Shown: positions 1-63,075 of the stretch, piece by piece | Layout of the letters: each line of letters starts with the position of its first letter | Position numbering within the stretch: the stretch's first letter is position 1 | Assembly: GCF_028641065.1 (NCBI RefSeq) | Contig: NC_073381.1 | Span: forward strand, 23,870,001 to 23,934,000 | Reading direction: 5' to 3' | Origin: Leucoraja erinacea | Lineage: Eukaryota | DNA length: 64,000 nt | Translations under genes and position numbers: made by a program | The notes under the pieces: model-generated | Databases searched by the model: none | What the model saw: the letters and a program-made list of their open reading frames with translations, nothing else | Told to the model about the DNA's origin: nothing

Positions 1-105
1 CTCATTCCTTCTCTCCAGAGATGCTGCCTGTCCCGCTGAGGAACTCCAGCTTTTTGTGTTGATCTTCGGTTTAAATCGGCATCTGCCATTCCTTCTTACA
101 CAACA
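1..105 (+). mobile_element. 3' part of a Penelope terminal-repeat-derived element
   Basis: ttctctccagagatgctgcctgtcccgctgag..actccagc matches the tail after the hammerhead core in other copies (e.g. 47102-47171). Confidence 0.7.
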
Positions 106-2435: not shown

Positions 2436-2479
2436 TTTGTGGGTTGAAATAAAGCAGGATATAAAAGAGTTCTTCAAGC

Positions 2480-2720
2480 AAAACACAAAGGGTTTGAAAA
2501 ACTCAGTGGGTCAGGCAGCAACTGTGGAGAGAATGAACAGGTGATGTTTTGGGTCAAGGCCTTTCTTTAGACTGATCCCCTGTCTGAAGAAGGTTCCAGC
2601 CTGAAATGCCGTTGGGTCTGAAGAAAGTTCTCAAACCGAAATGACGTTTGTGTTCTCTCCCCAGATGCTGCCTGGCCCACTAAGTTCCACCATCACATTG
2701 TGTTTACTTGAGATTCCAGA
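2480..2720. mobile_element. Inverted pair of Penelope terminal repeats with two tandem decayed hammerhead cores
   Basis: minus-oriented arm 2480-2575; CTGAAGA...GAAA at 2584 and 2618; plus arm continuing with cagatgctgcctggccc. Confidence 0.65.
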
Positions 2721-3003: not shown

Positions 3004-3350
3004 GTCTCTATTCCTTTGACAATTATCTAAATTCAGTGACATGAATTGTGTTGGTTTTAAACAGCTCTGAAAATCACATTACAGAGATTGTCTTCACTTC
3101 TCACAAACAGTTTTACTGAAATAACAGCAGTAAAAAAAGGCCAGCATCATCAGTCTTCTGGATCCATCAATATCCATTGACAATCAAGCTCATGTCAGGT
3201 GCCATATTTCTTGCTCCATAAACAAGATACATTTCAGTCTTAAGCACCCATCTGATTTTTTTTTAAAGTAGAAATACATTGCCATCTAACTCAAACACTA
3301 CCGCCAACAGAAGATTAACTGATCATTCATCTGGATGCTTTTTGTGGGAG

Positions 3351-3653
3351 TTTAGTTTAGAGATACAGTGCGGAAACAGGCCCTTCGGCACACCGAGTCC
3401 GCGCCAACCAGCGATCCCCACACATTAACACTCCTCCACACATTAGGGACAATTTACACATTTACCAAGCCAATTAACCTACATACCTGTACATCTTTGG
3501 AGTGTCAGAAGAAACCGAAGATCTCAGAGTAAACACACGCGATCATGGGGAGAACGTACAAACTCCGTACAGACAGCACCTGTAGTCAGTTTCAAACCCG
3601 GGTCTCCGGCGCTGCAAGCACTGTAAGGGCGCAACTCTACCACTGCGCCACCG
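3351..3653 (-). mobile_element. tRNA-derived SINE (HE1/V-SINE-like family)
   Basis: tRNA-like head with B-box-like ggtttgaaa on minus strand, gtttcttctgacactccaaaga core, (ctaaa)n tail; many similar copies in the window. Confidence 0.85.
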
Positions 3654-4001
3654 TAACTGATGCAGAATGATTGAAGTCAGTTCTCATGCCTCCCTTACCT
3701 CTAAATATATTGCATCATGTGAAGTGATTTAAGGCATCCTTTGAAAATGGAACGCAGTATTTGTTATGTTTAATCTACACTAGGTGGATTGGACAGCATC
3801 AGTCTTTCTCCCAATCACAGGCTGTTTATATCACTAAATTGGTTTGTGATACCGCAGCAGGCCTTGACTTTCAACAGTTGCTTTGACATCAGTTATAAAA
3901 TATCGATTGGTTATAAGCTTTACTTTTGTTAATTACACATTTTACAACTCCAGTTTAAATGTGGCTGGTAACCTTTAATTTCTAATATGGTCAACATTTC
4001 A

Positions 4002-5080: not shown

Positions 5081-5398
5081 GGGCGGTACGGTGGTTGGCG
5101 TAACAGTACAGCTACTGCCATACAGCGGCAGAGCCCCTGGTTCGATCCTGAGTACGGGTGCTTGTCAGTACGGAGTTTCTACTTTCTCCCTATGACCTGC
5201 ATGGGTTTTCTCCAAGATCTTTGGTTTCCTCCCACACTCAAGACGTACAGGTGTGTAGGTTAATTGGCTTGGTATAAATGTAAAATTGTCCCTAGTGTGT
5301 CCAGGGTGGTGTTAATGTGACGGAATCGCTGGTCGGTGCGGACACAGTTGGCTGAAGGGCCTCTTTCTGTGCTTTATCGCTAAACTAAACTAAACTAA
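5081..5398 (+). mobile_element. tRNA-derived SINE (HE1/V-SINE-like)
   Basis: ggttcgatcc B-box, ggtttcctcccacactc core, (taaac)n tail. Confidence 0.85.
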
Positions 5399-5774
5399 AG
5401 AAAGTTTGTGAACAAAATGTCAATTTTTGGAGTCTTTGGATAGTCCTTAAATTTGTGAATTACATAATAAGTTGAAAGCAAGCTGGCAGTCAATTGTACA
5501 TTTCTTCTGATCTTTACGTCCATCAATATTTGTGACCAGCATGGAGAAATAAACAAGGGAAGTGCAAACTCACTGACATACATCTTACACTATTTGACAA
5601 AGCCATTCTGGTCAGAGCTCCAAAACATTTTACCCTCAATTCAAATCACCTTGCTTCACAAAGTGGGGAGAATTCAGTGGTCCTAGCCTGTCCTTTGTTA
5701 AAAAGGTTCTTATCTACATTTGTACTTTCAGTCACACATTCTCACACATTTTTATTTTCTCCTTTGGTATATAG

Positions 5775-5818
5775 CTGACCAGACTGGAATGCTGTTTGTC
5801 GGAGATGCTGTGCTGCAA
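5775..5818 (+). CDS. SNTG2: gamma-2 syntrophin coding exon (44 bp), PDZ domain: (A)DQTGMLFVGDAVLQ
   Basis: atag|CTGAC acceptor; CAA|gttagt donor; peptide recognised as syntrophin gamma-2 PDZ; phase 1 start, phase 0 end. Confidence 0.95.
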
Positions 5819-5938
5819 GTTAGTGAGATTTTTGTACTCGTTTTGCATTTGGTGTATTTAACAGATGCTGTTGGCAAATCATTAGAGGAACTTATCTGTG
5901 GCATGTGTAGATATGACACGTTTTATTTAATTTTGCAG

Positions 5939-5980: not shown

Positions 5981-7189
5981 GTGAGTGTTAATTAGTTTGT
6001 TACATTTTTTTTAAGATTTAGGAGGAAATGATAATTGTGAGTTTGTAGTAACATTTCTGTCAGTGAATATGGCTTAGTGACATATTGTTGAAGCAAGGTT
6101 TTATGCCACCGCAAAAAGAGCAAACCTGATTTATAATCAAATTCCTTAGTGATGTTCCAAAATTAGGGCTGTCTTGTTTTGTCATACATCTTATTGCACT
6201 TGTGTTATTGATTGCAACACTGCCACCAAAATGGGACAAGACAGGACGTCACTAATCTTACAAATTGCCAGATAGTGAGTGCTGGAAATGTGAGGAACAA
6301 GGAGAAAGGATGATGGCTGATCGGACTAATGGTTAAATCCTGTCAGTTTAAGATGGAATAAATCAAATAAATATGTGGGACAAAGATTCATGGTTGCGAA
6401 AATAATGGTGTCACTTCAAAGCCAACATTGTTCTGTACAATTAGGACATTGTAAGAAGAGAAGTTAGAGCGTGGGGCAGTATCTCAACTCAAACTCATTT
6501 TTGTCACATATCCCTTGAAATTAAAAAACAAAAAGATCAGATTTTGTCTTGGACATTTAAATTTGTGTGTCATCCACAACCTTTAGAGAGAAACGAATTC
6601 AAGTGTGAGAATATTCCTTTGTACAAAAGAAGTACTTTTGTTTTCAGTTCCTAAGTGGCCCCTTTTTGCAATCCTTTGTTGTGGTGCACAACCATCACAA
6701 GGATGTAACATAAATTACTCCTTGGCATGTTTATACTTGTGCAACCTCAATGTGAACCATGATCTAGAAAGTAAATTCGGAAACCATTAATTATTTTTAA
6801 TCATATCTAAACTTATAGGAAGGATTTAGTATGTCTGCCTGGAATTTACAAGGATGTCCATTTGGTAGATTAGGCCAAAATGAATGGCTGCTTTATTTTA
6901 ATTTGTGAAATGGTACATGTGGAGTTTATATATTCTCCCTGTGACCATGCCAATTTCCTCCCGCTTTCATCAAGTTCCTCCCACATCCAAAGGTGTAAAT
7001 TAATTGTCTCTGTCATTTTCCCATGTACCAGTGAGTGGTAAAATCTGGGGAAGTTAATGGGAAAGCGGGGATAATAAAATGGGATCAGTGTAAGGTTACT
7101 GTAAATAGGTATTGATGGTTTGCAGGGATGTTGGCGAAGGGCCTATTTCTATGCATGCATGTCTCTTTGATTCTGTTAAATAAAAACAT

Positions 7190-7830
7190 TCAACACTCAG
7201 CGGGTCAAGCAGCATCTCTGGATGATATGGATAAGTGACTTTTTGGTTCGGGTCCCGTCTTCAGACATTGTGGTGAAGAGGGAGAAAGCTAAAAAAGAGG
7301 TGGGGTATGTATAATGCCAGGCAAGTAAAGGTGGATGCTGGTGAGGGTGGGTTTGATTGGTAGATGAGTGGACAACGATTACGGATAAATTGGGGTGTAA
7401 GATTGAGAGATGTGAAGTGAATTTTAATTTGTGAAATGTTAGCTAATGTCAGAGAACCCCATTTCCATGCCATTGGCTGGTAAGCTACTTAAATGGAAGA
7501 TGAGGTGCTCTTCCTCCAGTTTGCATGTGGCCTTACGCTGGTAAAGGAGGAGGCCCAAAAACAGAGAGGCCAATATGACAATGGAAGAATAGTTAAAATG
7601 ATTAACAGCCGGGAGATGCAGCAGCCCTAGATGGACCTAGCGCAAGTGTGCATCATAATGGTTGCCTAGTCTATATTTAGTCGCACCAATGTAAAGAGGG
7701 TTATATTGGAAGCACCAAATGCAGTAGATCAGCTAAAGGAGGTGCACCTGAACCTCCGAGTTGAATTACTTTAGCACTTTATGTATTATTTTTTTGTAAA
7801 CCAGCTTCTGCATTTCTTTGCATCTCTATT
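7190..7830 (-). mobile_element. Old Penelope 3' fragment (decayed GIY-YIG C-terminus + terminal repeat)
   Basis: terminal repeat 7195-7267; 7460-7735 is antisense-similar to 14620-14890. Confidence 0.6.
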
Positions 7831-9502: not shown

Positions 9503-9866
9503 ACAAAATTAGCATTATGTGCCTTATTTAGGTATGTAAACAGCCCAGCATAGGTGGCCACTGGATTTCCCAAAAACTGTCGACTGAATGGGTCAGATCG
9601 TCTACTTTAGACTAATGTTTAGAGAATTTAGAGATACAACTTGGAAACAGGCCCTCTGATTCACTGATCCACGCCGACTAGCGATCACCTCGTACACTAG
9701 CATTATCTTATACACTAGGGACAATTTATAATTTACAGAAGCCAATTAACCTTCTGTGGGAGTGTGGGAGGAAACCGGAGCACCCGCAGAAAACCCACGC
9801 TGCTGAGATCACCAATTAGCTGCATCCTCAGTTGTGCTGTATTTCCCTTTCTCAATCCCAGGTACA

Positions 9867-10152
9867 GTTTAGTTTAGAGATACAGCGCTGAAACCGGCCC
9901 TTCGGCCCACCGAGTCCGCGCCAACCAGCAATCCCCGCACATTAACAATACCCTATACACACTAGGGATAATTTACAATTTATACTAACCTGTACATCTT
10001 TGGAGTGTGGGAGGAAACTGAATATCGGAGTAAACCCATAAGGTCACAGGGAGAACGTACAAACTTGATACAGACAGCACCTGTAGTTGGGGTCGAAACC
10101 GTGTCTTTGGATGCACCGTAAGGCAACAACTCTACCGCTGCACCACCGTGCC
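9867..10152 (-). mobile_element. tRNA-derived SINE (a partial copy also at ~9618-9800)
   Basis: gtttagtttagagatacag tail, ggaggaaac core, caactctaccgctgcaccacc head. Confidence 0.85.
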
Positions 10153-10711: not shown

Positions 10712-11314
10712 CTTGAAAGCAAAGTCAGAATTGGCCTGGCACTGCCCCGCGGCCATTAAAGCCACAGATGATGCAAGGTGCTGGGGAAAAGCACAGACAC
10801 CTCTGTCCCCAGTCTAAACCTCTGGCACCAGTACAAATCAAATACTGGAGTAACTCAGCAGGTCAGGCCAGGCAGAACAGGGACAGGCAACATTTTGGGA
10901 TGGGACTGATTGTAGTAGGAGAGAGAAAACTGTAAAAGAGGTGGGGGCAAGACAAAGCCTGGCTGTTGAGAATAGGATACAGGTGAGGGAGGGTGGTGTG
11001 TTGAGATGAACTCGAGAGAAGAAAAGACAAAAGGATGACAAAAAGGGGTTAAATTAGACAAAAAGGAGACGAGTAGATATGGAGAGAAGAGGAGTGAAAT
11101 ATGAGTGAAATGTGAAATCTGAGGGAGTGATATAGATGAAAGGGGATGGGTGTGAATGGAGATGCGGTTGTGGAAGATTGGGTGCACACTAGGGTCAAAT
11201 AAGATATGGAGGGGAGAAGAAGAAAAAAAAAATGCTGTAAGCTGTTACCTAAAATTGGAGAATTCAATCTTCATACTATTAGGTTGTGAGTCGCCCATAC
11301 GGAATTTGATGATA

Positions 11315-11408
11315 AACATGAAATGCTGGAGTAACTCGGCGGGTCAGGCAGCATCCCTGGAGAAAAAGAAAAGGTGACGTTTCCAGTCGGAACCCTTCTT
11401 CAGACTGA
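11315..11408 (-). mobile_element. Penelope terminal repeat with hammerhead core
   Basis: minus strand 11403-11376 reads CTGAAGA A GGGTTCCGACTG GAAAC GTC. Confidence 0.75.
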
Positions 11409-12374
11409 AAGTTTCAGTGGAATGTGAAGTACTTCCAGTTTGTGGCTTCGCTGAGGCGGATGGCTTTGACAGCTTATGAAGTCTCGTTCCCAACCTCAGA
11501 GGCTGTCAGTGCGCTTGTCAGAAAGAAAATTTGCCATTCTCTCTAAATTTGCAAACATTCAACTAGGATCTGCTAAAAATATTTTTCAAAAATTGGTTTA
11601 AAAAATCTTCTAGGATAAAAAATATTTTAAAAAAATAACAGACTAAAATACAGTAAAATACATGAACTTAAATCAATTAAATCATTTAAACCTAGGATAT
11701 AAAATATAAAAAAATATAGTAAAATCCATGAATTTAAAACAATTAAATCATTTAAACTATCTTAATGCACACAAAGCCTTACTCACCCCATTCGCATTTC
11801 ATTGAGCGAGCTCTACCAGCAACAGAATTAAGAATGTTTGGTTATATGCAGATGACAGAGCAATGAAAGTTCTGCAGTTTTACAAGCACGTCAACAGGTT
11901 AATCTAGCAATAGTTCATGGGGTGAACTCTGGAAATTGTCAAAAGGCGATGCTGCCATGAAGTGGTCACTCAGGTTACTGAAGCCAACACCTGTAACCAC
12001 ACTGGAGGAAGCAGCCTGACCCAGGACATGGGTAATCGGTAATCACAAGCAGCAAAGATCTGCCCAATTGGCCTGGGCCATTTCTCAGGACTCCCTGGTG
12101 TACAACTAAGATGGGCATTAAGAACTTTACATCTCTAAAGGAGGAACATCAATTTTAAGGTATCACTCCATCGTGTTTCCACCGCACCATCCCCTGCACT
12201 CAAGAATAGCTCAGTGGAAGCTCCCACTACATTTGGACATGCCTGATATGGAATGGGCAATGGAGGACAGTATGGGAGAGAAATGACGTGGTAAAATATT
12301 TGCTATATTGTTGTTCTAATGACTGTCTTGCAGTTTCTTGGGAGTAAAGTTGTTGTTCTGCATCACATTGGCAG

Positions 12375-12462
12375 GTGCATCTACTACGAAATGCTGGAGA
12401 TGAAGTTACTATCACCGTTCAGTACCTCAGGGAAGCCCCATCCTTCCTTAAACTTCCATTAG
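12375..12462 (+). CDS. SNTG2: gamma-2 syntrophin coding exon (88 bp): VHLLRNAGDEVTITVQYLREAPSFLKLPL(G)
   Basis: ggcag|GTG acceptor, TTAG|gtaagc donor; PDZ C-terminal strand; not in the ORF track, translated by hand. Confidence 0.95.
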
Positions 12463-12481
12463 GTAAGCAACAAGAATGATA

Positions 12482-12984: not shown

Positions 12985-15232
12985 GCAAAATAGCTAAGCC
13001 TGGTAGAGCTGCTGCCTCACAGGGCCAATGACCCGGGCTTGATACTGTCTGTGTAGAGTTCTCTGTGTACATTCTCCCTGGGACCGCGTGGGTTTCCTTG
13101 GGGTGCTCCGGTTTCCTCACACATCCCAAAGATGTGCAGGTTTGTTGGTTAATTGAACCTTTAATGGTGTAGGAACAAAGCTGAGGCCACGCGCCAACTC
13201 TCAGGCACCTCCTCCTACTTACCCCTGGACCATGACCCCACAGACGAGCACCAGGCCACTATCTCTAGCACCATCACTGACTTCATCAACTCCCACGCCC
13301 TGCCTGCCCCCCCCGAGCCTCCAACCTCATCGTTCCTCAGCCCCACACGGCCCGATTTTACCTTCTCCCCAAAATCCACAAACCTGACTGTCCTGGGAGA
13401 CCCATTGTCTCTGCCTGTTCGTGCCCCACCGAACTTATTTCCACATACCTTGACTCCATCCTATCTCCCCCCCTCCTGGTTAAATCCATCCCTACCTATG
13501 TTCAAGACACCTCAGACACTCTCCGTCATCTCCGGGCATTCCATTCTCTAGGCCCCCATCCCCTCATCTTCACCATGGACGTCCAGTCACTCTACACCTC
13601 CATCCCCCACCAGGATGGTCTCAAAGCCCTCCGGTTCTTCCTCGACCGGAGAATCAACCTACACCCGTCCACTGACACTCTCCTCCGCCTAGCGGAGTTG
13701 GTCCTTACCCTCAAAAACTTCTCGTTTGGCTCCTCCATTTCCTCCAAAAACAAGGCGTAGCTATGGGCACGCGCATGGGCCCCAGCTATGCCTGCCTCGT
13801 TGTCGGGTACGTCGAACAATCCTTGTTCAATACGTACCAGGGCCCCATCCCCGACCTCTACCTCCGCTACATCGACAATTGCTTTGGTGCCACCTCCTGC
13901 ACCCACACACAACTGACTGACTTAATCCGCTTCACCACCAACTTCCATCCGGCAGTCAAATGCACCTGGACCATTTCCGACACTTCATTTCTTGACCTCA
14001 CTATCTCCATCGCAGGTGATAGACTTCTTACCGACATCCACTATAAACCCACTGACTCCCATGGCTATCAAGACTACTCTCCTTCCCACCCTGCTTCCAG
14101 TAAGGACTCCATCCCTTATCCCAATTCCTCCGTCTACGCCGCATCTGCCCCCAGGATGAGGTGTTCCACACCAGGACATCGGAAATGTCCTCATTCTTCC
14201 TCATCCCCCTCCCCTACTATGGATGAGGCTCGCACCAGGGTCTTTCCATACCCCATAACACTGCTCTCTTTCCCCATCCCCTCACTCGCAACAAGGGCAG
14301 AGTCCCCCTAGTCCTCACCTTTCACCCCACCAGCCGTCACATACAACAAATAATCCTCCGTCATTTTCGTCACATCCAACGTGACCCCACCACTCGCCAC
14401 ATCTTCCCATCTCCCCCCTCTGTCTGCTTTCCACAAAGACCGCTCCCTCCGTAACTCCCTGGTGAATTCTCCCCTTCCCTCCCGCACCACCCCCTCCCCG
14501 GGCGCTTTCCCTTGCAACCGCAAGAGATGCAACACCTGTCCCTTTACCTCCCCCCTCGACTCCATTCAAGGACCCAAGCAGTCGTTCCAGGTACGACAGA
14601 GGTTCACCTGCATCTCCTCCAACCTCATCTATTGCATCCGCTACTCTAGATGTCAGCTGATCTACATCGGTGAGACCAAGCGTAGGCTTGGCAATCGTTT
14701 CGTCAAACACCTCCGCTCATTCCGCACTAACCAACCTGATCTCCCGGTGGCTCAGCATTTCAACTCCCCCTCCCATTCCGAATCCGACCTCTCTGTCCTG
14801 AGCCTCCTCCATGGCCAGAGTGAGCACCACCGGAAATTGGAAGAACAGAACCTCATATTCCGCTTGGGCAGTCTGCACCCTAGTGGCATTCAACAATTGA
14901 ATTCACCAATTTCTGATAGCCCTTGCTCTCTCCTCCCCTTCTCAGCTCTCCCTCAGCCCTTGTGCTCCTCCTTTTTCCTTTTTTCCTTTTTTCTTTTTCC
15001 TTTCTTCTTCCCCCCCCCCCCCCCCCCCCCCAACCCTACATCAGTCTGAAGAAAGGTTTGGGCTCGAAACATTGCCTATTTCCTTCGCTCTTTATATGCT
15101 GCTGCACCCGCTGAGTTTCTGCAGCACTTTTGTCTACCATAGGAATGGAACTAGTGTGAATGGATGATAGATGGTCAGCATGGATTCAGTGTGCTGGAGG
15201 GCTTGTTTCCATGCTGTATCTCTAAACTCTAA
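12985..15232 (+). mobile_element. SINE split by the Penelope insertion (5' part to ~13175, 3' part 15140-15232)
   Basis: head ggtagagctgctgcctcacag and core ggtttcctcacacatcccaaag before the insertion; tail tgtttccatgctgtatctctaaac after it. Confidence 0.75.
13176..15139 (+). mobile_element. Penelope-like retroelement (RT + GIY-YIG endonuclease + terminal repeat), 5'-truncated and frameshifted
   Basis: ARFYLLPKIHK..GRPIVS, MDVQSLYTSIP, MGTRMGPSYA, YLRYIDN (RT), CNRKRCNTC linker, NLIYCIR...IYIGETKRRL (GIY-YIG); terminal repeat 15041-15138; possible TSD taggaa (13170-13175 / 15140-15145). Confidence 0.93.
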
Positions 15233-15852: not shown

Positions 15853-16110
15853 TTTAGTTTAGTTAAGTTTAGAGACATCGCGGAAACAAGCCCTTCGGCT
15901 CACCGAGTCCACGCCGACCAGCAACACACTGGCACTGTCCAGCACGCTCGGGACAATTTACAATGTTTTCTGAAGTCAATTAACCTACAAACCTGTATGT
16001 CTTTGAAGTGTGGGAGTGGACCGGAACACCCGGGGAAAACCCACATAGTCACGGGGGGAATGTACAAACTCTGTACAGACAGCACCCTTAGTCATGATCG
16101 AACCCAGGTC
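15853..16110 (-). mobile_element. tRNA-derived SINE
   Basis: same family motifs as 3351-3653. Confidence 0.8.
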
Positions 16111-16614
16111 TTTAGGTATTTATTTATAATTAAAAAAAACTCTCTCAGCCCAGAAGTTAGCACAGTTAATCTCTTCGGGATTGTTTCATTGCCGGTATAT
16201 CCTTTCTTAAATAAAGGGACCAAAACTGTACTCAGTCCTCTGGGTGTATGTTCACCAGCACTGTAACAATACCCATCCATTTCTAATCATCAAATCCCTT
16301 GTAATAAAGGTCTTTTAAAATTGTCTCAAATTACGCAACACTTCTTGTATTAACCATCAGTGGTACTCATTTTGAATAATTTAACATGTTTCTAGCAAAG
16401 TAAAAGACCTCCATGCACTGAATATCAATCCCATCAGCACTACAATAACTTTTTAATTATTATCTCCAGGGCAAAAAGGACAGGGGCCATGCTGTGGCCA
16501 ACATTAAAGGATTAGGTTTAGGTTTATTATTATCACATGTACCAGCGTATAGTGACAAGCTTTGTTTTGCATGCTAATTAAATATATAAGATTTTATATA
16601 CATAAATATAATCA

Positions 16615-16748
16615 ATGTTTCGGAAGGAACTGCCAATGCTGGTTTATACCGAAGATGGACACAAAATGCTGGAGTAAATCAACGGGTCATGCATCATCGC
16701 CGGAGAAAAGGTATAGGTGATCTTTCGGGACGGAACCCTTCTTCAGAA
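16615..16748 (-). mobile_element. Penelope terminal repeat, decayed hammerhead core
   Basis: acacaaaatgctggagta...ggtgatctttcgggacggaacccttcttcag. Confidence 0.7.
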
Positions 16749-17159
16749 TATAATCTAGTCAGACTCAAATACAATGTATAGGTAAAGCATAGGGGAAGAT
16801 ACAGAGTGGAGAATATAGTTGAATAAAGCGAAATAGATCAGAGACACACAGCTTGATGTCTTAACAGAATGTAGATTCTGGAAAATAATGCTGAGAGAGG
16901 ATTTCCAGGATATGGAAACATTATGAAGGAAAAAGCAAGTGTGCAGTAATCTAGCGTTTTAACACTGTTGATGAGGAAAGCGGTACAGAGAAAATAAGCA
17001 AGTGAAGCACAGAAGAATGTTGAAATTCTGGCAATGATAAACCATGCAATATTAATCAGAAATATGTTGAGAAGCAGACAAAACTTGTCAGGCTTTAACT
17101 GCTGAACGGTTGAAAGGGTTAAATATGTTGAAAGTTTGTGACATTGGATTGGATAGTTG

Positions 17160-17316: not shown

Positions 17317-17765
17317 TTGCGGAGGCCACTGAGAGCCTACAGCATGGTGTCCTAGAGTAATTTTATGATTGAAATGCTTGGTACAAAGCAGAGTTCAGAG
17401 AATGACCAATCAATAGTATGCTGCATGTGATCACATTTCATGCATTGCCACAGATATCATTGGATGCAAAATAATGGGAAGAGGTTATATTTTTTTAAAA
17501 CAAGGCTTGACCGACTTCTTTTAAGGTGAGAGAGGCAAAGTTTAAAGGAGATGTATGGGGCAAGTTTTTTTTTTTAAGGTGTGCGTGCGTGCCTCCACAC
17601 CTCCACTCGCAATCGTGCTTTGCGGGAAACACACCCAACGGGTCTGCACTCCGTCTAGTAACATTTAAAAGGCTTTTAGATGGATATGCAAAAACCTCTC
17701 TCACCTATACCTACCTATATCCACATCACTTCTCTTCCAGTTTCTCCCCCACCCCCCACTATAAT

Positions 17766-17885
17766 CTGTCTGAAGAAGGGTCCCAACGCGAAACATCCCC
17801 TATGCATGTTCTCCAGTGATGCTGCCTGATCTGCTGAGTTACTCCAGCACTTTGTGTCTTTTTTTGTAAGTCAGCATCTGCATTT
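17766..17885 (+). mobile_element. Penelope terminal repeat with hammerhead-like core
   Basis: CTGAAGA A GGGTCCCAACGC GAAAC ATC at 17770-17797, followed by gatgctgcctgatctgctgagttactccagcac. Confidence 0.72.
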
Positions 17886-18090
17886 TCGTTTGCCAAAAGG
17901 TTATGTCTGATATTTTTCTAACTATTTGTTAACAGTTGTAATGATCCTCGTGAATTTGTGCTTGTGTTTTAAAAACCCATTTCACGAACAATCTCCTGCA
18001 GAGCTGGCCAGAGACTGTATTGATGGTTGGCCTGTCTCTTGACAACTCCTTCAACATGAAAACTATTGCATTTCTTCCTTTACTGTCTAG

Positions 18091-18182
18091 GCTCACCAGG
18101 CCCGTCCAGTGATCACAGCAGTGGGACATCCTCACCCCTATTTGACAGTGGTTTACATTTAAATGGAACCTCTACAAATACA
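18091..18182 (+). CDS. SNTG2: gamma-2 syntrophin coding exon (92 bp): (G)SPGPSSDHSSGTSSPLFDSGLHLNGTSTNT
   Basis: pyrimidine tract + ctag|GC acceptor, ACA|gtaagc donor; phase 1 matches previous exon; SNTG2-type 'SSPLFDSGLHLNG' motif. Confidence 0.95.
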
Positions 18183-19627
18183 GTAAGCTCTTCTCGGTTA
18201 TCTTTTTACCAATAATACGAGCCAATGCTCACTGTTGATTTGTATTATGATTAGATTTGTTTTGATTTTGAATGATAATGCTTCGTGATTGTCGAGCAAA
18301 AGCTCTAAGGTAGCTCCACCTAAGTCTCTTTGCAACGGTGGTACTATATGCTCTCAGTTGAAAAATCCCATATATCACATGCTTTCTCTGACTATGATTG
18401 TGCTTAAGCCAAACAGATATCTCAGAGTGGACAAAACTGTCTCATATTCTCTGGAGGTAAAAGGTTGCCAAGAGGCTACGCAGTGCTGCTGGTAGACCTG
18501 GTGCTTCACAATGCCAAAGACCAGCCAGGGTTTGATCATGACCTCGGGTGCTGTCTGTGTGGAGATTTAGACATTCTGGTGCAGGGATGGTGCAGTCCCA
18601 AAATGCTGACTATCATTTTACCTTATTGAATGCTGCTTGACCCGCTGAGTTCTTACAGATTATTTTTGCAGCTGTAGACATTTGTGTTACAAACCCAGAA
18701 AAATTGAACAGGGAGGAACCCGCTTGATTGTCGTCAAATAAACTGCAAAATAGTGCAGGGCTTCTTCTAAATGTTTAACCTTCACATCTTGATACATGTG
18801 CTGCACCAAGTTGTCCATTTCAACCAGTACCCCCTTCTCCATAAAGATTTACCATTATTTGGTGGGCTGAAGAGCCTGTGTTTCTAAAGTCTGAAGCCAA
18901 AATGTAACTGCTAGCTCGCATGGTTTTGGACTTGGGAGGAAACTGGAGCACCCAAAGGAAACCCAAATAATCACAAGGAAATCGCACAAACGCCACGCTG
19001 ACAACGCTCAGGATCATGATTGCACCTGGATCTCTGGCGCTGTGAGCCAATAACCCCACTAGCTGTGCCATTGCGCTATCTATATATGTAATTCCCCCAT
19101 TAAGTGCTTGGATCAGTTCAAATGCAAATTACTAAATGGTTTAATGGGTTTTCCATTCTTTAACTTGTGTTGTATAAAGGTTTGAGATAAAGCTGGAGCA
19201 ATTGTACAAAGCCATTTCCAGTTCACATAGCCAATAATCTCTCACCAACTGAAACAGATTTAGACTAATTTACTGTCATATACATCTGGGTGGAATTAAA
19301 TTTCCTGTTCACTTGAAGCTCAGTGAGTACACAAGATAATTGATAATAATAGATATAACAATACAACGATGAATGCAAAACTGCAAAATGGTGCAAAAGT
19401 TATATTTGCAATCTGAGATAGTGCAAGAAAATTGAAAGTACCATAATGGCATAACTGAAAGAGTGTAGGAGATGTGAAAGAAGTGAGTGTTTGAGGAGTC
19501 GGAGAGCAATGGGGAAGAAGCAGTTACTGTGGCTAGATGTCATGGCTTTTAAGCTCCCGTATCTTCTCCTAAAAGGCAGAAGAGGGGGAAGGGCAGCAGG
19601 CATACTTGGTGACACTTCCAGCCTTCA

Positions 19628-23214: not shown

Positions 23215-23497
23215 ATCTTTAGACTTTAGAGATACCGCACAGAAACGGCTTATTTGGTCCACCGAGTTCACGACAATACACAATCACCCATACACTAACA
23301 CTATTCTACACACTAGGGACAATTTACAATTTACAAAAGTCAATTAACCTACAAGTCTTTGTAGTGTGAAAGGAAACCGGAGCACCTGGAGAAAACCCCA
23401 CATGGTCACCGGAAGAACGTACAAACTCCATGCAGACAGCGCACACAGGCAGGGTTGAACCTGGGCCTCTGGCGCTGTAAAGCAGCCACTGTGCCAC
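23215..23497 (-). mobile_element. tRNA-derived SINE
   Basis: ctttagagatac tail, ggaaaccggagcacc core, tRNA-like head. Confidence 0.8.
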
Positions 23498-27929: not shown

Positions 27930-28290
27930 TCAAGATAGATACAAAGTGCTGGAGTAGCCAAGCAGGTCAGGCGGCATCTCTGGAGAAAAGGTGACATTTC
28001 TGATTGAGACGGTTCTTCAGACTGAGTGTCAGGGGAGAGAGAAACGAGAGATATAAAAAGGTACAGAGAACAAATTAATGAAAGGTACGCAAAAGGACAA
28101 ATCGAAGCCAGCCACAATGATCAAGGAAAGGTGGAGCCCACAATGATTCATTGTTGGTTGTGGAGAATGTGATAAAGAGTGATACAAACTGTGAGAAGTA
28201 GCAGACTAGTACGACGACTAGGATGGGGGGAGGGACGGAGTTTTACTTCACTATCTTCAGTGCAAACCAGCATCTGCAGTTCCTTTCTAA
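27930..28290 (-). mobile_element. Penelope terminal-repeat-derived element
   Basis: caaagtgctggagtag..ggtcaggcggcatctctggag..gtgacatttc..ttcttcagactga. Confidence 0.65.
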
Positions 28291-33117: not shown

Positions 33118-35121
33118 CCTGCACTGCGGAAGTTGAATTGCTAATGTAAAAGTAAATTTGTACAGAGCTAAAGATTAAATAGACATTTAAGCAGCCATCT
33201 CCAGAGGATGACCTTTTTGGGTGGGTTACAAATAAATGCTGGCTGATTCACTGACTCTCTCGAGCAAGTGGAGAGAGTCACCCTCTCACATTGACATGTA
33301 ATGTAGGCACCCTTTGTAGAAAGATAGACCTGCAGAATTAAGCTCGGGAATCTCCTGCAACAAAAATAAAAATCCAGGAAAGTCACAAGATCAGCTCCGA
33401 CAGCAGGATAGGATGTTGTGGACCTAGCACCGTTCTGGCTCATGGGCTTCAGAGATTGCATCTGTGATGCCGGATATATGGCTGGTGATAAGTGCAACTT
33501 TATGTTACTGGAATCCTTTATATTTGTGCGTTTATGTCAATGTTGTTCCAGTACTTGTGTTGAAATAAAATGATTACGAATTTATGCCTTAATATTTCTA
33601 TGCTAGTACAATATATAAAATGCTTAGTTGATCAATGGGTAAATTATTCTATGCTAGCATCATTTACCAATAATGAGAATGTCAGATGAGCTAGGTTTTA
33701 TGAAGGGAAATTTATGAAGGAAACTCCTGCACCCATTGTCTATTGTCTAAATCATTGATGTAGATGACAAACAGTAACGGGCCAAGCACCGAACCCTGAG
33801 GCACACCACTAGTCACAGACATCCAATCTGAGAAGCAACCTTCCACCATTACCCTCCGCTTGAGAAAAACAGTTTAAAGAGAGAAATGACTCGGGTCGTT
33901 AAGATGATGAAAAGTGTAGAGAGTAGATACGCACAGGCCATATAACATCACTCACAATCACAGAACACAAAGGGAAACTGACATAAACACATCAAGTTTC
34001 ATGTGAAGCTATGGATAAGATTGTTTAAAATTTCCTTTCAGAGCAGTGGAACAGCAACATTATATAATGTGATATTGATCAGCCCCTTCAATATCATTAT
34101 GGATAAATATTAGGTTAGAATTAAATCAAACCCCGTTTATTGAAGTCAGCCACTTCGATAAATATTATGGATAGATATTATGTTAGAATTTAAGTTTTCT
34201 AGAAGAGGTGATCAATGGAAACTCTCATCTGCTTATTGCTCAAACCTAAGGGCCATACCTACGGAGAAGAGCAAGTCGGGCTTCAATAACAGAGATCACT
34301 TATGTGGTGCAGGGCAGTTAATGTACTAACCCGTCCTTTATTAGTTTGAATAACAAGAGTATGCTGCATATCAGTTGAGAAGCAGGGCAATGGACCTTTC
34401 AAGTTAAAATTAAAGATGAAATGAAGAAAGCGAATATTGGTAAGGGCTTGGATTAATGGGTTGAGAGGGCTCTGCAGATGGGAAATTGGAATGATTGGTG
34501 AGTCAAGAAGAAATAAATGAGTAGATGCAGTCACAAGAGTCACTGGGAAGAAAAGTTATGAGTTGATTCTTAAAGGTGAGGAGGCCTGCAGAGAATTCTA
34601 TAAGCAAGGTCAAGAGAGATAACAGCTGGAGACATGAAAGAAAAGAGGAATTAATGGAAACCCAGGGTAGAAAGGAACTGCACACTATATAGCCCTCTCT
34701 GGTTTTCTTTCAGATTTCCAGCATCAATAGGTTTTGATTTCCACTCAAATGCTGCTTAGGTTTTGTTGCGATTTTATTTTGCAGAGTAAGAAGAAACTAA
34801 GAAAACAACATCTGTTACTAAACACAATAGATCAATTTTTTAAATCGGCACTGATATAGTTGATGTTGAATGGTATTGTTTAGCACGCAATAAAAAGCTT
34901 ATCACTGTACCTTGGTACACGTGACAATAAACTAAACTGAAACTGAGGTATTTGTACTTTAGATTTTTAGGACCACAGAATATGAGCAGCTCATAGGTGG
35001 ATAAAAAATATTCATCCAAGTCTAATGGCAGAGCAACAAACCGATTACATTGGGAACTAATGGATTCTCATGTATTCAGTTGTCAAACACAAAGTTGTGA
35101 ATAAGACATGCTGACTGGTAG

Positions 35122-35220
35122 GTTGACACAAAGTGCTGGAGTACCTCAGTGGATCAGGCAGCATCTCTGGAGATAAAAGATGGGTGGCATTTCAGGTTAG
35201 GACCCTTCTTCAGACTGAAA
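35122..35220 (-). mobile_element. Penelope terminal repeat, decayed hammerhead core
   Basis: acacaaagtgctggagtacctcag...acccttcttcagactgaa. Confidence 0.7.
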
Positions 35221-37894
35221 GACTGACTGGTAGGCTAATTGGCTACTGTATGTAATCCCAAATATAGGTGCATTGCAGGAGAATCAGATGCTAAGAGAGA
35301 GAATGGGTTAGGTGGAAAATGTGAGGAATGGGATTGATGGGATTTCCCGAAGAGCCAGGATCGCTTATACCCATACGAAGTTGTGAGAACATAGGGAAGC
35401 AGAGCAGGTCTCCTGTATGAAGAGAAAGCAGTAGTTTGAAATATAACTCTTGGTTGGAAGTTTCAATCATTGAAGGTCCATAAGGAATAATTTCCCGACA
35501 CCAATCTAAATGAGGGGCAACATGCAAGGAAATTACAGTTCTAAATCAGTTCTGATCAGCCATGATCATAATGAATGGCGGTGCAGGCTCGAAGGGCTGA
35601 ATGGCCTACTCCTGTACCTATTTTCTATGTTTCTATGTTTCTATGTAAAAGGAGGTGCGCGCAGAAAATTGGCATACAGCTGCCACTACAGGTGTCCCTT
35701 GTGGGATCACATTACAAGTCTCCAGTCAGACAATTTCTGTATCAGTTAATTTAATGTGTAGCTCTGAGCTGCAAAAAAATCTTTTGTGAAATGGTTGGCT
35801 GCATTAGAGGTTGATGGATATGATGATAAATTGGGTATGTAGGGTCAAAAGGAGACACGCCAGTTGGGGCTAATGGCATTTTCTTCTTCATCATCTTCTA
35901 CATTTATCTTGTTATATGTTACACAAACATTATATCATCATCTCCCTAAAGATGGAATGTCTGTTCAAAATTTTAGTGTATGATTAACACGAATGTCCCT
36001 GGTGGATTTTCAGCTCGTAGTAATATTTGAGGTTTTTTTCTGAGGTTGTGTTCATATTATGTGAAAGTAATTTCCTATTCTCTCTTGAGATCTTTTGTGT
36101 GAAAGGTTCAATTGCCTGAAACAATCATTCTCACATCTGTCGAGTTTCCCTGTCCTGCTTGTGGCTTCCGTAAATATGTTTTGTTTTTAGTCCTCATCTG
36201 ACCATATGCCACAAGTTTGTATAGAAATTAGTCTCTAGTGAAGGATCTGAATTTAGGAGCTGGCTTGGTTATGTTCTTTGATAATTTTGATGGAGTGCTA
36301 AAGATCAAAGCAACCAGAACCAAGAAGTAACATTTTCAGATTTAAGACAATGTTGTTTTTAGGGGTGTCTTAATGAATTAACATCAGCAAAATGATAAGA
36401 AGGATGATTGGCCTAGAGTTCTTCTGTGCCTGCAAAGGTTGTGATAAATATGCACCGTGACCCAAATACAAATTCATCAGTGGAGAAAATCAGGGCAGCT
36501 TGTGGAAAGGTGCAAATAAGCAGAATGGTGCAACATTATAGCACAATCAACATTAGCGCAAAAAAAAACCTAGCGTTGTATAACAGAAAACCAAAAGAGG
36601 TAGAGTCACGTGTAAGAGCACATGGCAGCACCTAGGGAAGCCAGTGAAAAAGAAATCATTGGTTCAGGGATCTGATAACACTGGAGAAGAAACTGTTCTT
36701 AAATCTTGACATCCGGGCTTTCAAGCTCCCTATCTTCTTGCAGAAGGTAGAGGAGAGAAAAGGGAATGTTCAGGGAGTCATGCAGCCTTGATGATAATTC
36801 CAGCCTCCCTGCTGAAACACAGCGGGAAGATGGACAGGATTGAAGGAAATGGCGAATGTTTGATGGAGTGGGCTGTGTTCACCACTCTCCACAGGTTTAC
36901 TAGAAACAGAGCTAAAGATAGCTTTCTTCTATTTGGCTGTCTCCTGTTCATGCTTATTTTGCATGCCGCTACGACCATAATAACCTTCTATATTTTTCAT
37001 TCTTTTAGCCAGTACTTTTGAAATGTTAGTGGTATTCTCCCATTACTTTTACTTTTAGTGAAATCAAGTTGAGCAGTTCTTATATTTTTCTGAAGTTCTG
37101 AGTCTTGCCTCTTTCTCTGTTCTCTGCTGTCATTAAAATACACCACCGTACTCAACCTAATATCGATTGATAACATATTTTTTAATGCCAGATTTGAATG
37201 GTATTTATTGCTGAATTTAATCCCCATTTTCTTATGGAATTACTGCCAACATTAGCAATGTTGCGGCAACAACATTATCATATGTTCTCACCAGTGAGCT
37301 GATCACAAAGCCCACCTGAAAAGCCACTCTAATTCTTTCTTGTTCATGAGACTATGCGGATTTTCCTTCACTCTTGGTGCAGTTGTGACATAAAACATAG
37401 ACACCTTATTGGAAATTTCAGACAATCAATGTGTCTCACAGCCTAATCTGTCATACAACAGGGAAAATGCTCAGATTCCCAAACTCTGAGCTATATTGCA
37501 AATCTGCCGACTCCTCTCCCTGGAGTCGTTTCATGCCTAGCTCAGATAATCTTCACTTTTCTTCAGAATTCATCGCGCCTCGCTACGCTGGTGATTTCTT
37601 TATTAGATGAAAGATCGAGAACTGAGCAAAGTTCCTGTGATAGGGATGGATCGAGCTGAAGTGCCATATCTCAGGAATTCTTCATTTTCCAACACAGTTT
37701 TCCTGATGCTTTAGTGAAGAGGGAGATAAATCCAAAAGGTTAATGTTTAAAATGTCAATAAGTGTGAAGCGAAAAGGAATTGAATACAAGTGTTCTTGTG
37801 CAAAAGAGAAACAATATTTTATGTGGCAACTTTGTTTTGGTCTCAGGTCCCAATAAATACTCAAATTGATCGAGTGATTATAATACAATGGACT

Positions 37895-45244: not shown

Positions 45245-45440
45245 CACTCTTGTACTCAAATTCAATTAAGGCCAATGCATTAATTGGCAGCAAATAAACA
45301 CATTGCTGGAAGAACTCATTTGGCCAGGCAGCATCTGTCGTGGGAAGCAGACCGATGACATATCATGACAGGACACTTCTGCAGACTGATCATTTGCCTT
45401 CCTAACCATTTGTGGTCCCTTCTCATTCCAAGTAGATGTT

Positions 45441-46840: not shown

Positions 46841-47450
46841 AAGGGCCTGTCCCACTTGCGTGTCCTTGGCATGCAAATTACGCGACCTCATGGTCGCGTT
46901 GAGCCGAGGTGGCACTGCGAAGGTCGGGCGCGATTACATGCATACGCACAGCCGTCTGGAGCGCGTGACGTCATTTGAAGATGGACACAAAGCTGGAGTA
47001 ACTCAGCGGGACCGGCAGCATCTCTGGAGAGAGGCAATGGGTGACGTTTCACGTTGAGACTCTACTTCAGTCTGAAAAGAAGGGTCTTGACCCGAAACGT
47101 CACCCATTGCTTCTCTCCTGAGATGCTGCCGGTCCCGCTGAGTTACTCCAACATTTTGTGTCTATCTTCAATTTTCTTGGCCCCGCTCTGGGAGTAGAAG
47201 TGGGGGCGGAACCGGACCGCGGCGGCCGTGAGCCCCAGGCCGTGTTTGGCGAACGTTTGCCTGCTTCTGCTGCTGTTGAAGGTGAGACGTTGCATCGCGC
47301 CAGGGTCTTGGGCCTGTCCCACTTTGGCCGTCAGTTCCGCGACAGGCCGTTGGCACGTGAAGATTTCGTTCACTACAAATATTTCGGAACCCCGCGCGAT
47401 GTCACGCGCAACTACATACCCCTCCGCGCTTCTAAGTGGGACCAGCCCCT
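46841..47450. mobile_element. MITE (GGGCCTGTCCCACTT TIR) carrying a ~197-bp palindromic Penelope-repeat cassette (46975-47171)
   Basis: tt|aagggcctgtcccactt ... aagtgggaccagcccct; internal inverted arms centred on ttcag-t-ctgaa at 47071. Confidence 0.75.
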
Positions 47451-52654: not shown

Positions 52655-52671
52655 TATTATTAAATGACAGA

Positions 52672-53022
52672 TAGATACAAAATGTTGGTGTAACTCAGCG
52701 GGACAGGCAGCGTCTCTGGAGAGAAGGAATGGGTGCTGGTTCAGGTCGAGACCCTTCTTCAGGCTGATGTCAGGAGTGGGCGGTACCGAGATAAAATGTC
52801 GTCAGAGGCAGTAAGACAGGTAGGAGACCTGGGAAGAGGGAGGCAAAGGCTACTTGAAGTTAGAGAAGTCAATGTTCATACCACTGGAGTGTAAGCTACC
52901 CAAGTGAAATATAAGGTGATGTTCCTCCAATTTGCACTGGGCCTCACTGACAATGAAGGAGGCTCAGGACAGAAAGGTCAGTGTGGGAATGGGAGGGGGA
53001 GTTAAAGTGTTTAGCAACCGGT
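52672..53022 (-). mobile_element. 5'-truncated Penelope insertion with a 17-bp TSD
   Basis: TSD tattattaaatgacaga at 52655-52671 and 53023-53039; minus strand encodes PVAKHFNSPSHSHTDLSVLSLLH (cf. 14764-14815), followed by the terminal repeat. Confidence 0.88.
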
Positions 53023-55025: not shown

Positions 55026-57210
55026 TATCACACTAAATTTGCAGATACTTAATAAATTGCTCTTCACCCTTCTAATGGAGGTTGCATTAGGAAATGCTGA
55101 AAAACAGCAGATGCTAGAATCTTCAGCAAGGTCAGATTCATTCAGTCTGAAGTGGGGTTGTGACCCAAAACATTGCCTGACCAATCCCTCCACAGATGCT
55201 GTGTGACTCATTGCAGTGTAGTTTCTCCCACACTTTCTCATTTTGATGCATTTGATCTCATTTTTGATTCATACAGGTGTCAGGGGTTATGGAGAGAAGG
55301 CAGGAAAATAGGATTCAGAGGGAAAGATAGAAACGCAATGATTGAATGGTGGAGTAGATTTGATGGGTCAAATAGCCTAATTCTGCCCCTAGAAGTATGA
55401 ATATGAACTATTTGGAAACTTGCCTCCCAAATATCCGCAGCAGATCCAGACTCAGAGTGCCCTTGACCCCATTCTACATTTCCCTCTACTTTGTCACTTC
55501 AGACCATCGTCTACTTCCTCATCCTTCTTCTCATTCTCCCCAACGCATTGCATGCCTTGAGAATACATGGAGCTACCATTTATTGCAGAAGCCTAAGGAC
55601 ATTGTCAACTCCTTCAACTGAATCAAAACAATGTTAAGTCGAAACAAAGATCAATTAGCCTTGAAGACCTGTGTTGCTGCAAAAGTAGGGTTTATTTTTG
55701 CTGCTCAACCCTTTAATCTATGAAAATTCATTCTGAAACTGCTTGTGTCACTTTTCTGGGAGAGCAGCAGGGGAATAGTTTACTTCAGCCCATGATTTGC
55801 AAGTAGCAATATTCCTGGAGCCTGAACAATTTTCTGTATAGTAACTATGTGCAAATTTGAGAGTCAAGCTGAGCACCACTTATAAATGCAACTTCCCGAC
55901 ATGATGACAGGTCTGCGAGTGATGATCACTGCAGAATACTTAGCTATTAATAGTTTTTTTTTCCCCAAGTCTGAACTGCTAAGGCTGTGTCAGAAGTTTC
56001 ACTGATACACTATTGCAGAGAGTATGGCCACTGGGGTGGGAAACATGGAGCAGTTAGGTCCAATTCCCATAGCTTATAAAGGCGGGAAGGTATCCTTAAC
56101 TGGACCATGGAGATAGCATTCCCTTTAGTGAGTATTCCACAGCTGGCTTTAGAGTTGGTCTTCTCAACGACGACTTGGGTAAAATGGGCTCTAAAACTTG
56201 CACTCAAGTAGTACTTTGTCCTTGAAGATATGAGATTCGTCCTATCAGGCAAATCAGACCAATTCTTAAAGATTTGGTCTCCATTTATCTTATTACAAGC
56301 ATATGGTGCAACACAACCTTAGAAATTAATTGTTTCAGAACCGGGGGAGGGGTGGGTAAAGATACGAAGGAGGCATATCCCTTTCAATTTCTCTCTTTTT
56401 TTTCTTTTCTCTTTTTCTCTCCTCTATTCTTTTCCTTTTTGCTTATTTCACATCACCTTCTTTTCTTTTTCGAGCTATATAATATTCTCTCTCTCTATAT
56501 TTCTTGCTTTTCTTAATCTTTTTTTCTACTATTAAATTTAAAATAAGAAGTTGTACATGAAATGTAATGTGTTATTTATGTCTTATATTATTGAACATCA
56601 CTTCTAATAAAAATATATTTTTTTAAAGTAGTACTTTGCTCAGCTTTGAGCTGAATTGCTCATCCCAGGCTTGCAATGGTGACAACAACAATTCCTTTCA
56701 TGCACATGGAGGACCTGTTTCATGGTGCACTCTTCAAATTATCTGCATGGCTCATAAAAGCCGTGTTCTACAAGATTGAATTTCATGCCCATAATGTCAA
56801 ACTAATACACACACTGATTGACTTCATGGTGGACACACTCAGTGATTCCCGAGATTGTTAGCATCACTTCCACTAATGTCCTTCCCAATATCACACTGGT
56901 ACAATCTGCATCTTGCATTTGCATACCTGCACTGGATGCGATTTAGGAAGCAAAATATTACCAGTGGTGATGAACGGTGTTGCCTGCTCAAATACTGCCA
57001 CGAGATTTTTCGGTGTTAAATATATCACCGGTTAAATTTCTTCATTGTTGCATTTGAAGAGTGGTGTAATCAAAACTTAATATTGAAGAGCAAAAGAGTT
57101 AAATGAGTCAGTTTAAAGATTTTAAAAGTCATCTACTTGTTGATGAATCATAGCTGATAACATGGTGACAGGTCACTTGGACCTGTTTTCCCATGTCCAT
57201 GCTAATCTTT

Positions 57211-59483: not shown

Positions 59484-59611
59484 GCACCATCATCACCCTC
59501 TTCACCTTCAGCTAATGAACCAAAATTTGAGAAACGTTGGTTAGATGCCTTATCGGTCCCTTTGACAATGGCTCGAGTCTCAAGATACAGAGTTGGACCA
59601 GATCAATTAAG
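59484..59611 (+). CDS. SNTG2: gamma-2 syntrophin coding exon (128 bp): APSSPSSPSANEPKFEKRWLDALSVPLTMARVSRYRVGPDQL(R)
   Basis: tccatccag|GCA acceptor, AG|gtttgt donor; phase 0 start matches previous exon; 'EKRWLD.LSVPL.MAR' recognised as SNTG2; preceded by a 41.3-kb intron. Confidence 0.94.
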
Positions 59612-60034
59612 GTTTGTAATCCTGAGAGATAAAGACTCAGCAAATTGGAACACTTCTGATATTGCTCTTTTTGTACAGATGTTCGGTTACAATATGGTAC
59701 AGAGTTGTTTACAATAATGATGAATGATCATATTTCTAAATATCCCCCAAGATGCAGTTTTCTTCAGATTAATTGAATGTAGGAGGAAGTCGATTGAAGA
59801 AAAGTTAAATATGACAGTTTCTTGGCTGTACTGGCCAGCAGTAGCCCCGTCAAAATTGCATTTGATCAAACAGCAGCCCAATAACATCTTCTTTTGAAAA
59901 ATAATTGTAGCTTTGTGAAATTGGGTCTAAAATGAGTCATTTCACAGCTTTTTAATTATTGGCAAATATCCTGTATGTTTCTCTTTACACTGTTTCCTGC
60001 AAGAATATTGTGCTTCATTATTTATAATTTATTA

Positions 60035-60700: not shown

Positions 60701-61406
60701 TCAGCTGTTTCAATCCGTACACTGCCTCTGGTTATCAAACTGTTTGTCCAATATCTAGTCCCAGGTGGGTCAGGTCTTTCCGAAAGTTAACTTCACAAGG
60801 ATTGCTAACCATTAAATTCAGCCGCCATCACAGACTCCTTTCCCTATCCACCAATTTCATCCACTCATGTTTACTCGAGTTGAATAGTTTACTATTTTGC
60901 CATTTTGTTTTACCCAAAGATTAACCTCCATCTTCCATTCTCTCTGCATTATGATCATCTAATTCTACCTCTGTCCAACAAAGGGTCTTGTCTCATCATC
61001 TGTTCTTTTTTCCTAAGATGCTGTCTGACCCCGCTGAGTTGCTGTTTCTGTCTATCTCTGTAATGTTGTCGATGTACGTCCTGACGTTCTCCAAAAACTG
61101 CAAAAACACACCTGCTGGCTTCACAATTTCCACTCAGCTACCATCACAAATTCTGTTCATTCAAAATCCATTATTTCCATGCTCCTTATACTTATTCACC
61201 TACAATAACTCCTGATTTACAACACCTCATTTCTATAATTCATTCATGCATCCAACTCTCACTTTTCCTTTCATCTGTAATGTCTATCGATCCAATAATC
61301 TTCCTCCAAATTTGATTTCCACTATCTCTGGTCTCTTGCTCAACTCAAGTTTGTCACCCAGCTGAACATGATGTTAGATTCATAGAGTGATACAGAGTGG
61401 AAACTG

Positions 61407-62884: not shown

Positions 62885-63075
62885 AACAGGCAGGTAACAC
62901 AATTTCCTCTGCATCTGTTATAATGTCTCACAGCAAAGAAAGAGGCCCTTTGGCCAACTATTACTCATTTCTCACTACTTCAACAATAATCCCAGAGCAG
63001 GGTTGATTTTCAGATTGGAGGCCTGTAACCAGAAGTATACCGCAGGGGTTAGCCCTCTATCCACTGTTTGTCATC

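Follow-up and report, generated by a model that had tools for sequence, protein, structure and literature searches.

The DNA considered here is a stretch of 64,000 nucleotides from the skate Leucoraja erinacea, referred to as the window. Its plus strand carries exons of the gamma-2-syntrophin gene SNTG2, which confirms the earlier placement of the repeat copies discussed below in SNTG2 introns. The gene spans at least 211 kb, and the following exons lie in the window:

5774..5819, plus strand: SNTG2 PDZ exon, limits approximate.
12375..12464, plus strand: SNTG2 exon; best PDB match gamma-2-syntrophin 7qql (E 8.6e-8); 100% identical to the devil ray SNTG2 model P0004.
18087..18194, plus strand: SNTG2 exon; 94% identity to P0004.
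59484..59612, plus strand: SNTG2 exon; 88% identity to P0004; named homologues are gamma-2-syntrophins.

Scattered among these exons are copies of a short repeat bearing a motif that resembles the core of the hammerhead ribozyme. A sequence-only reading of the window had placed this motif at 12 positions and singled out one copy, here called the flagged copy. The motif is present at all 12 positions with an offset of at most 1 nt; when 10 window copies were combined into a profile, it matched at 19 places, and seven of these copies had been overlooked (marked "added" below). The copies and the remnants of their parent element are distributed as follows:

3..65, plus strand: 3' portion of a copy, truncated at the window edge (profile; added).
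2478..2707, mixed strands: inverted copy (2581-2478, minus strand; added), motif fragment at 2584 and plus-strand copy at 2618, all decayed.
7175..7732, minus strand: old endonuclease remnant (7732-7451; 45% amino acid identity to the young domain), then a decayed motif at 7264.
10837..10906, minus strand: partial copy without the 5' core box (profile; added).
11310..11417, minus strand: whole short pseudo-LTR copy bearing the flagged motif (profile E 4.3e-31).
11376..11403, minus strand: flagged minimal hammerhead motif, C3 to H17, antisense to SNTG2.
13175..15136, plus strand: 5'-truncated, frameshifted Penelope-like element with RT, CxxxxCxxC linker, GIY-YIG, 3' UTR and the hammerhead motif at 15046.
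15034..15139, plus strand: terminal pseudo-LTR of the element above, assigned to subfamily B; neither helix II nor helix III is preserved (profile, alignment).
16653..16758, minus strand: short copy in which none of the three helices is preserved.
17760..17860, plus strand: short sense copy, helices broken.
18583..18657, plus strand: strongly decayed partial copy (profile; added).
27933..28031, minus strand: short copy, helices II and III broken.
35120..35226, minus strand: short copy, U16.1 lost.
45296..45392, minus strand: strongly decayed copy (profile; added).
46979..47167, both strands: head-to-head inverted pair, joined at a TCAG-N-CTGA palindrome (minus-strand copy 46979-47078 added).
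52669..53021, minus strand: endonuclease and 3' UTR remnant (68% nucleotide identity to the young element), then a decayed motif at 52762.
55135..55239, plus strand: short sense copy, core broken.
60973..61056, plus strand: strongly decayed partial copy (profile; added).

Because it lies antisense to SNTG2, the flagged copy is not a hammerhead in the SNTG2 pre-mRNA. The reverse complement of 11376-11403 reads CTGAAGA-A-GGGT-TCCG-ACTG-GAAA-CG-TC, in which the core boxes, the palindromic helix III, the NUH site and the 2-bp helix I are all intact and helix II lacks its G10.1-C11.1 pair, with G10.1 facing G11.1. The earlier statement that every copy in the window carries at least one lesion holds, as none of the 18 aligned window copies preserves the core together with helices II and III. 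Ordinary decay would give this result, since in a wider sample of introns from five genes (see below) 30 of 305 motif-spanning copies preserve core and both helices, and at this rate the chance of finding no intact copy among the 14 spanning copies of the window is about 0.23. The window copies are decayed passengers. The plus-strand copy of the pair at 46979-47167 has a 2-nt insertion in its core, and the pair is predicted to fold as a single long hairpin (-157 kcal/mol). An Rfam scan of the window returned no hammerhead family at E<=1, its single match being an unrelated chance hit.

The proposed architecture, that of a minimal type I hammerhead whose helix III is the loop-less palindrome ACGU, is supported by pattern matches that agree with the published consensus of minimal hammerhead ribozymes (min-HHRs). 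The core boxes CUGANGA and GAAA, U16.1 and H17 are present in the family as well as in the flagged copy. The majority of the family also has an extra nucleotide after A9 and a G10.1-C11.1 pair closing helix II, which in the flagged copy is replaced by G.G; among the 305 copies, positions 10.1 and 11.1 read GC in 179 and GT in 68, the latter reflecting CpG decay. In young copies the palindrome places C-G at 15.2-16.2 and leaves no loop III, and helix III is formable only between two copies; of the intronic copies, 55/138 in sense and 74/167 in antisense orientation still have the palindrome. The motif consensus drawn by eye in the sequence-only reading recurs exactly in the 2.19-Gb genome (18,833 matches versus 0 in the reversed control). 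In that consensus, helix II should instead be read as 4 bp capped by a tetraloop (CUCG or UUCG), a 2-nt loop being sterically excluded.

Two subfamilies are the dominant forms: subfamily A, with GGGU-CUCG-ACCC and a putative cut after GUC, and subfamily B, with GGGU-UUCG-GCCC and a putative cut after GUU. Helix I has 2 bp, the third position being A.C in 176 copies. The helix changes between A and B keep pairing and are one-sided only (U-A/U-G): the 10.4-11.4 pair is U-A in 213 copies and U-G in 54, the 2.1-1.1 pair U-A in 146 and U-G in 67, and two-sided changes occur in at most 4 of the 305 spanning copies per pair. We also observed an older, decayed relative whose helix I has 3 bp (GUC/GAC) and whose core is mostly CUGAUGA (21 genome matches versus 0 in the control), in a search whose pattern required helix I pairing and did not require the helix II sequence common to many of the matches. 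Both sides of helix I differ between the young families and this relative, and the comparison suggests that the young families may have lost one whole C-G pair in a single event, with the register kept. Among intronic copies, core positions are mutated at 5.6% versus 8.4% downstream (p 1e-4), which fits selection in the source elements, although alignment ascertainment may be responsible instead. In an energy model that leaves out the tertiary core and includes no active control, the double-hammerhead fold of four intact copies lies 15-24 kcal/mol above the dimer minimum, and that of the flagged copy 34 kcal/mol above it; the predicted stable fold is a different one, which we regard as weak evidence.

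The motif is far more abundant in the genome than expected by chance. A loose core pattern matches 117,950 times versus 482 in the control, and requiring helix II, the palindromic helix III and a 2-bp helix I in addition to the core leaves 44,344 intact copies versus 0. Extrapolation from 598 copies per 1.604 Mb in the introns of five genes gives a total of roughly 800,000. There is no family with a longer palindromic helix III in the genome, where 16 pattern matches stand against 48 in the control. A direct tandem of two core-intact copies, 103 nt apart, was noted at locus L025 (G000:C1:2477692 and 2477795), which is a naturally occurring dimer fit for cleavage assays.

The origin of the motif in Penelope terminal repeats, likewise proposed earlier, is borne out: in the window the motif is found behind remnants of RT/GIY-YIG, and a young copy has it at either side. 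The element at 13175-15136 has 87.3% identity to this young copy, L068, over 1986 nt, and its motif at 15046 has the same sense as the ORF. L068 comprises an inverted end, the motif, the ORF, a further motif 4,143 nt after the first and a 37-nt tail. A genome search with the endonuclease domain yielded 100,595 first-look candidates, 150 of which were scored, and 20 loci were picked for long open frames, their RT-EN parts being ~97-99.5% identical to L068. None of these 20 loci has an intact full-length ORF, the longest frames measuring 771-778 aa. Three young loci match Pfam RVT_1 (E about 4e-6) and, weakly, GIY-YIG (E about 0.006), both under the curated cut-offs, and Atlas neighbours at 0.98 carry RVT_1, HTH_animal and GIY-YIG; the domain assignment comes from young copies, with 0/4 of the window's broken Penelope-like element (PLE) frames matched by Pfam. 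The CxxxxCxxC linker, which is found in the window element and in young copies, is named as a defining feature of Neptune and Nematis (Craig et al., bioRxiv 10.1101/2021.04.23.441226), and by this linker motif only the parent element would be of the Neptune type.

In related elements the motif lies 93-197 nt past the endonuclease domain, and it trails domains that are 45-99% identical to the young one, with 3' UTRs of varying length. By regular expression it is found within 450 nt of the endonuclease in 24 of 43 cases in the DNA examined; some of the others have a motif that the expression narrowly misses, and some are truncated. A tail motif follows 168 of the 481 copies that reach the 3' end. 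In two near-full-length copies, at L068:5831-7601 (minus strand) and L064:3813-7596 (plus strand), a proline-rich, internally repeated N-terminal part is in another frame than RT-EN, which reflects either copy-specific frameshifts or a true two-frame layout.

The arrangement and the ends of the 598 intronic copies bear on how they arose. Head-to-head pairs account for 227 of them, against a mean of 21 and a maximum of 44 under random placement; tail-to-tail neighbours in the same set are at chance level, and 35 copies lie within 100 nt of a tandem neighbour, where 40 are expected at random. The TCAG-N-CTGA palindrome is found at 11 of 125 head-to-head junctions. Among the 371 solo copies, 227 begin at or before C3, and 10 begin within 2 nt of the putative cut site versus a background of ~12. 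The core-anchored solo copies mostly share little upstream sequence (139/189), and similarity fades over -1 to -6. Since the 5' ends cluster just before the core instead of at the putative cut site, copying of the templates likely ran through an uncut site, as it does in vitro for the anole element (Frangieh et al. 2024, PMC11167929). The stop just 5' of the core may represent either a transcription start or a fall-off at the palindrome, and the case for a promoter or run-off step comes from the copy boundaries, which spread over ~6 nt; the promoter of D. virilis Penelope is described as internal to the pseudo-LTR (pLTR; PMC2377424). In four raw-read runs from a related species the motif is thousands deep with no pile-up of ends, in fragmented or oligo-dT libraries that cannot map cut ends.

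The sequence-only reading had also raised the idea that sense copies are disabled by selection, as they would be part of the host pre-mRNA. The sample used for this question consists of introns of SNTG2 and four further large genes (1.604 Mb in total), the latter placed by Pfam exon matches and strand. The four added genes belong to the Vinculin and Glypican families and are presumably CTNNA2, CTNNA3, GPC6 and GPC3; introns understood to host nested opposite-strand genes were left out, as were DPPIV_N genes, for which the exon search gave too few exons. The sample contains 598 copies (0 in reversed sequence), 286 of them in sense and 312 in antisense orientation (p 0.31). Of the 305 motif-spanning copies, 61/138 in sense and 63/167 in antisense orientation have an intact core (OR 1.31, 0.83-2.07). 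Full integrity is found in 9/138 versus 13/167 (OR 0.83, 0.34-2.00), and with the values of this strictest class a ~3-fold sense depletion is still compatible. Once head-to-head pairs are removed, 173 sense and 198 antisense solo copies are left, of which 6/96 versus 8/119 are fully intact. Core mismatch is 4.9% in sense and 6.2% in antisense copies. Four CpGs, inside and outside the core, are retained at 40-52%, alike on both strands, and no transcription-linked asymmetry is present when they are summed (268 versus 263). By a strict regular expression, 7 sense and 14 antisense copies are intact (p 0.19), and in SNTG2 alone it finds core boxes in 0 sense versus 4 antisense copies. The proposed purging of sense copies thus finds no support in the introns of the five genes, where alignment-based integrity is equal across strands and total counts are similar. 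A strong purge is not seen in this small test, and a mild purge restricted to perfect copies is possible. Since intact copies are no rarer in sense than in antisense orientation, harmful cutting of host RNA is unlikely; this first strand test gives no sign of host harm by intronic sense copies, and in SNTG2 nothing points to any role for them.

We consider it highly probable that a very abundant Penelope-like retroelement of the Neptune type is the source of the motifs, which would be dispersed and since decayed copies of its ~100-nt pseudo-LTR; the minimal type I hammerhead motif is likely kept for replication of the element and likely has no meaningful effect on SNTG2 RNA. The RT/GIY-YIG protein would start cDNA ~70-110 nt downstream of the motif, for which the anole element provides an in vitro precedent, and would copy back through the uncut motif, often stopping a few bases 5' of the core and thereby generating short solo copies; alternatively, the cDNA would fold back and give rise to head-to-head pairs. 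Once inserted, copies on either strand would decay neutrally. Cleavage would require a second copy for helix III and probably the protein of the element too, both of which a lone intronic copy lacks. In a head-to-head pair, the motif would be buried within the long hairpin.

Other readings differ from this one in what the motif does and in what the copies are. Intact sense copies might cut host pre-mRNA, alone or in trans, and be purged or disabled by selection in consequence; there are 44,344 intact copies in the genome, RNA reads of a related species are rich in the motif, and both counts by the strict regular expression (7 versus 14 in the sample, 0 versus 4 for the SNTG2 core boxes) lean in this direction. 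Set against these, alignment-based integrity is equal on both strands, the total copies (286 versus 312) and the core mismatch (lower in sense) speak against it, and helix I has just 2 bp, all of which makes such an effect improbable. Even less credence is due to the short copies being a SINE or retrozyme family that acts autonomously and replicates via self-cleaved circular RNA. Most copies are indeed short with similar boundaries, and retrozymes are reported as PLE derivatives, including one chondrichthyan case (bioRxiv 10.64898/2026.07.22.740005), yet retrozymes are defined by tandem units and tandem neighbours here are at 35/598 versus 40 at random, the short copies belong to the same subfamilies as the ORF-linked ends, and copy ends do not lie at the cut site.

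A more serious contender, though one that we would back only tentatively, is that the hammerhead of the young families is vestigial as a catalyst and that the 100-nt segment is conserved as an internal promoter or as a binding or start signal for the RT. The internal promoter of D. virilis Penelope (PMC2377424) would be a precedent, and the missing peak of 5' ends at the cut site and the reduction of helix I from the 3 bp of the older relative (21 matches versus 0, with pairing required by the pattern) to 2 bp in the current families are consistent with it. So are the lack of two-sided changes in helix II between subfamilies and the predicted folds, which pair core purines with pyrimidines 3' of the cut site and leave the double hammerhead of four intact copies 15-24 kcal/mol above the dimer minimum. 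These points are balanced by the preservation of all core nucleotides across divergent lineages and by changes that retain pairing (U-A to U-G at 10.4-11.4 and 2.1-1.1). Furthermore, the shortening of helix I looks like the loss of a whole C-G pair with its register kept, 2-bp helix I variants are given for Culex, Oikopleura and several Drosophila (PMC4209133), and nearest-neighbour energies leave out the tertiary core and come with no active control fold. It is also conceivable, at a similarly modest level of confidence, that catalysis is retained and held in check. The RNA of the element would start at ATCAGT, 3-6 nt 5' of the core, which we take to resemble the initiator consensus; the hundreds of thousands of copies of 100-140 nt would be run-off cDNAs of the uncut 5' end, and the 2-bp helix I together with a conserved alternative pairing across the cut site would hold the ribozyme off until the protein of the element or a second copy is available. 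If so, the tolerance of a vertebrate for introns with tens of thousands of intact hammerhead cores would be understandable, and the copies would record in the genome where PLE transcription starts and how pLTRs form.

Elements of this kind have been in print since 2014, and the finding adds a family, not a concept. The min-HHRs of metazoan PLE pLTRs, as described by Cervera and De la Pena (2014, PMC4209133), share with the skate family the CUGANGA/GAAA boxes, the extra nucleotide before G10.1, the G10.1-C11.1 pair, the loop-less C-G palindrome of helix III, the NUH site and the pLTR position, as well as the occurrence of many dispersed single copies from truncated elements and of opposite-strand pairs; in that account, monomer cleavage was undetectable and multimer cleavage low. 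In contrast to the 3-6 bp described there for vertebrates, helix I has 2 bp here, at the low end of the published range, helix II with 4 bp is shorter than most, and the 44,344 intact copies compare with about 4,000 in coelacanth and 9,000 in Xenopus (PMC4209133). A search of supplement file 2 of that work for chondrichthyan names gave none. With EN+ PLEs of the Neptune type, as characterized by Craig et al. (bioRxiv 10.1101/2021.04.23.441226), the parent element shares an RT with C-terminal GIY-YIG, a Zn-finger-like linker, a partial tandem making pLTRs, an inverted 5'-truncated copy, a 30-40 nt tail and a pLTR hammerhead.

In the anole Poseidon element PAc (PMC11167929), as in the skate element, the hammerhead lies where pLTR and ORF meet, the tail is delimited by two 3' ends, and RNA-seq reads do not pile up at the cut site, the reads here being from a related species and from libraries unsuited to this comparison. 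PAc belongs to the Poseidon clade and its ORF begins inside the ribozyme, whereas in the young skate element the first ATG lies 164 nt past C3. The anole motif is reported to need protein and to be dispensable for insertion in vitro (PMC11167929); its protein-assisted cleavage has been measured. The non-LTR retrozymes described in bioRxiv 10.64898/2026.07.22.740005 are similar as PLE-derived, short non-coding units with a type I hammerhead, but form tandem arrays, whereas the copies here are solo or head-to-head; with no tandem excess (35/598 versus 40 expected), they do not fit the retrozyme definition. Literature searches, with the repeat databases Repbase and Dfam outside their scope, found no paper on this PLE family. 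Because the family is very large and young, it offers statistical power on the role of the PLE hammerhead. Its copy ends, like the in vitro result for the anole element, suggest copying of uncut RNA.

Some further observations concern related or neighbouring sequences. Residues ~1-57 of the devil ray model P0004 resemble the antisense translation of a related repeat, and this N-terminus gives weak matches to 11376-11402 and 52741-52764 of the window and dozens of scattered matches in the genome; part of the model is thus likely repeat-derived, and that ray likely has a related family. It is from this protein that conservation across species is judged here. The window also holds a second dispersed repeat, which is SINE-like, ~270-300 nt long and present in at least 8 copies, and several remnants of other elements. 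The four LINE remnants have what we take to be a CR1-like appearance, and some of their 3' pieces are 93-96% alike; the RT-like stretch at 49357-50046 resembles DIRS-type elements.

3349-3654, 5106-5401, 9627-10149, 15853-16113, 23215-23498, 40512-40787, 57206-57489 and 63073-63350: SINE-like repeat.
19627-22170 (minus strand), 57802-59390, 31366-31814 and 607-1358 (all plus strand): LINE remnants.
49357-50046, minus strand: 229-aa frame with the RT-like stretch, 0 Pfam matches.
51457-51620: run of 164 N.
42095-43723, plus strand: 542-aa reverse transcriptase frame with RVT_1 (E 8e-30) and ALKBH8_N matches.
1369-2046, plus strand: fragment related to the frame at 42095-43723.
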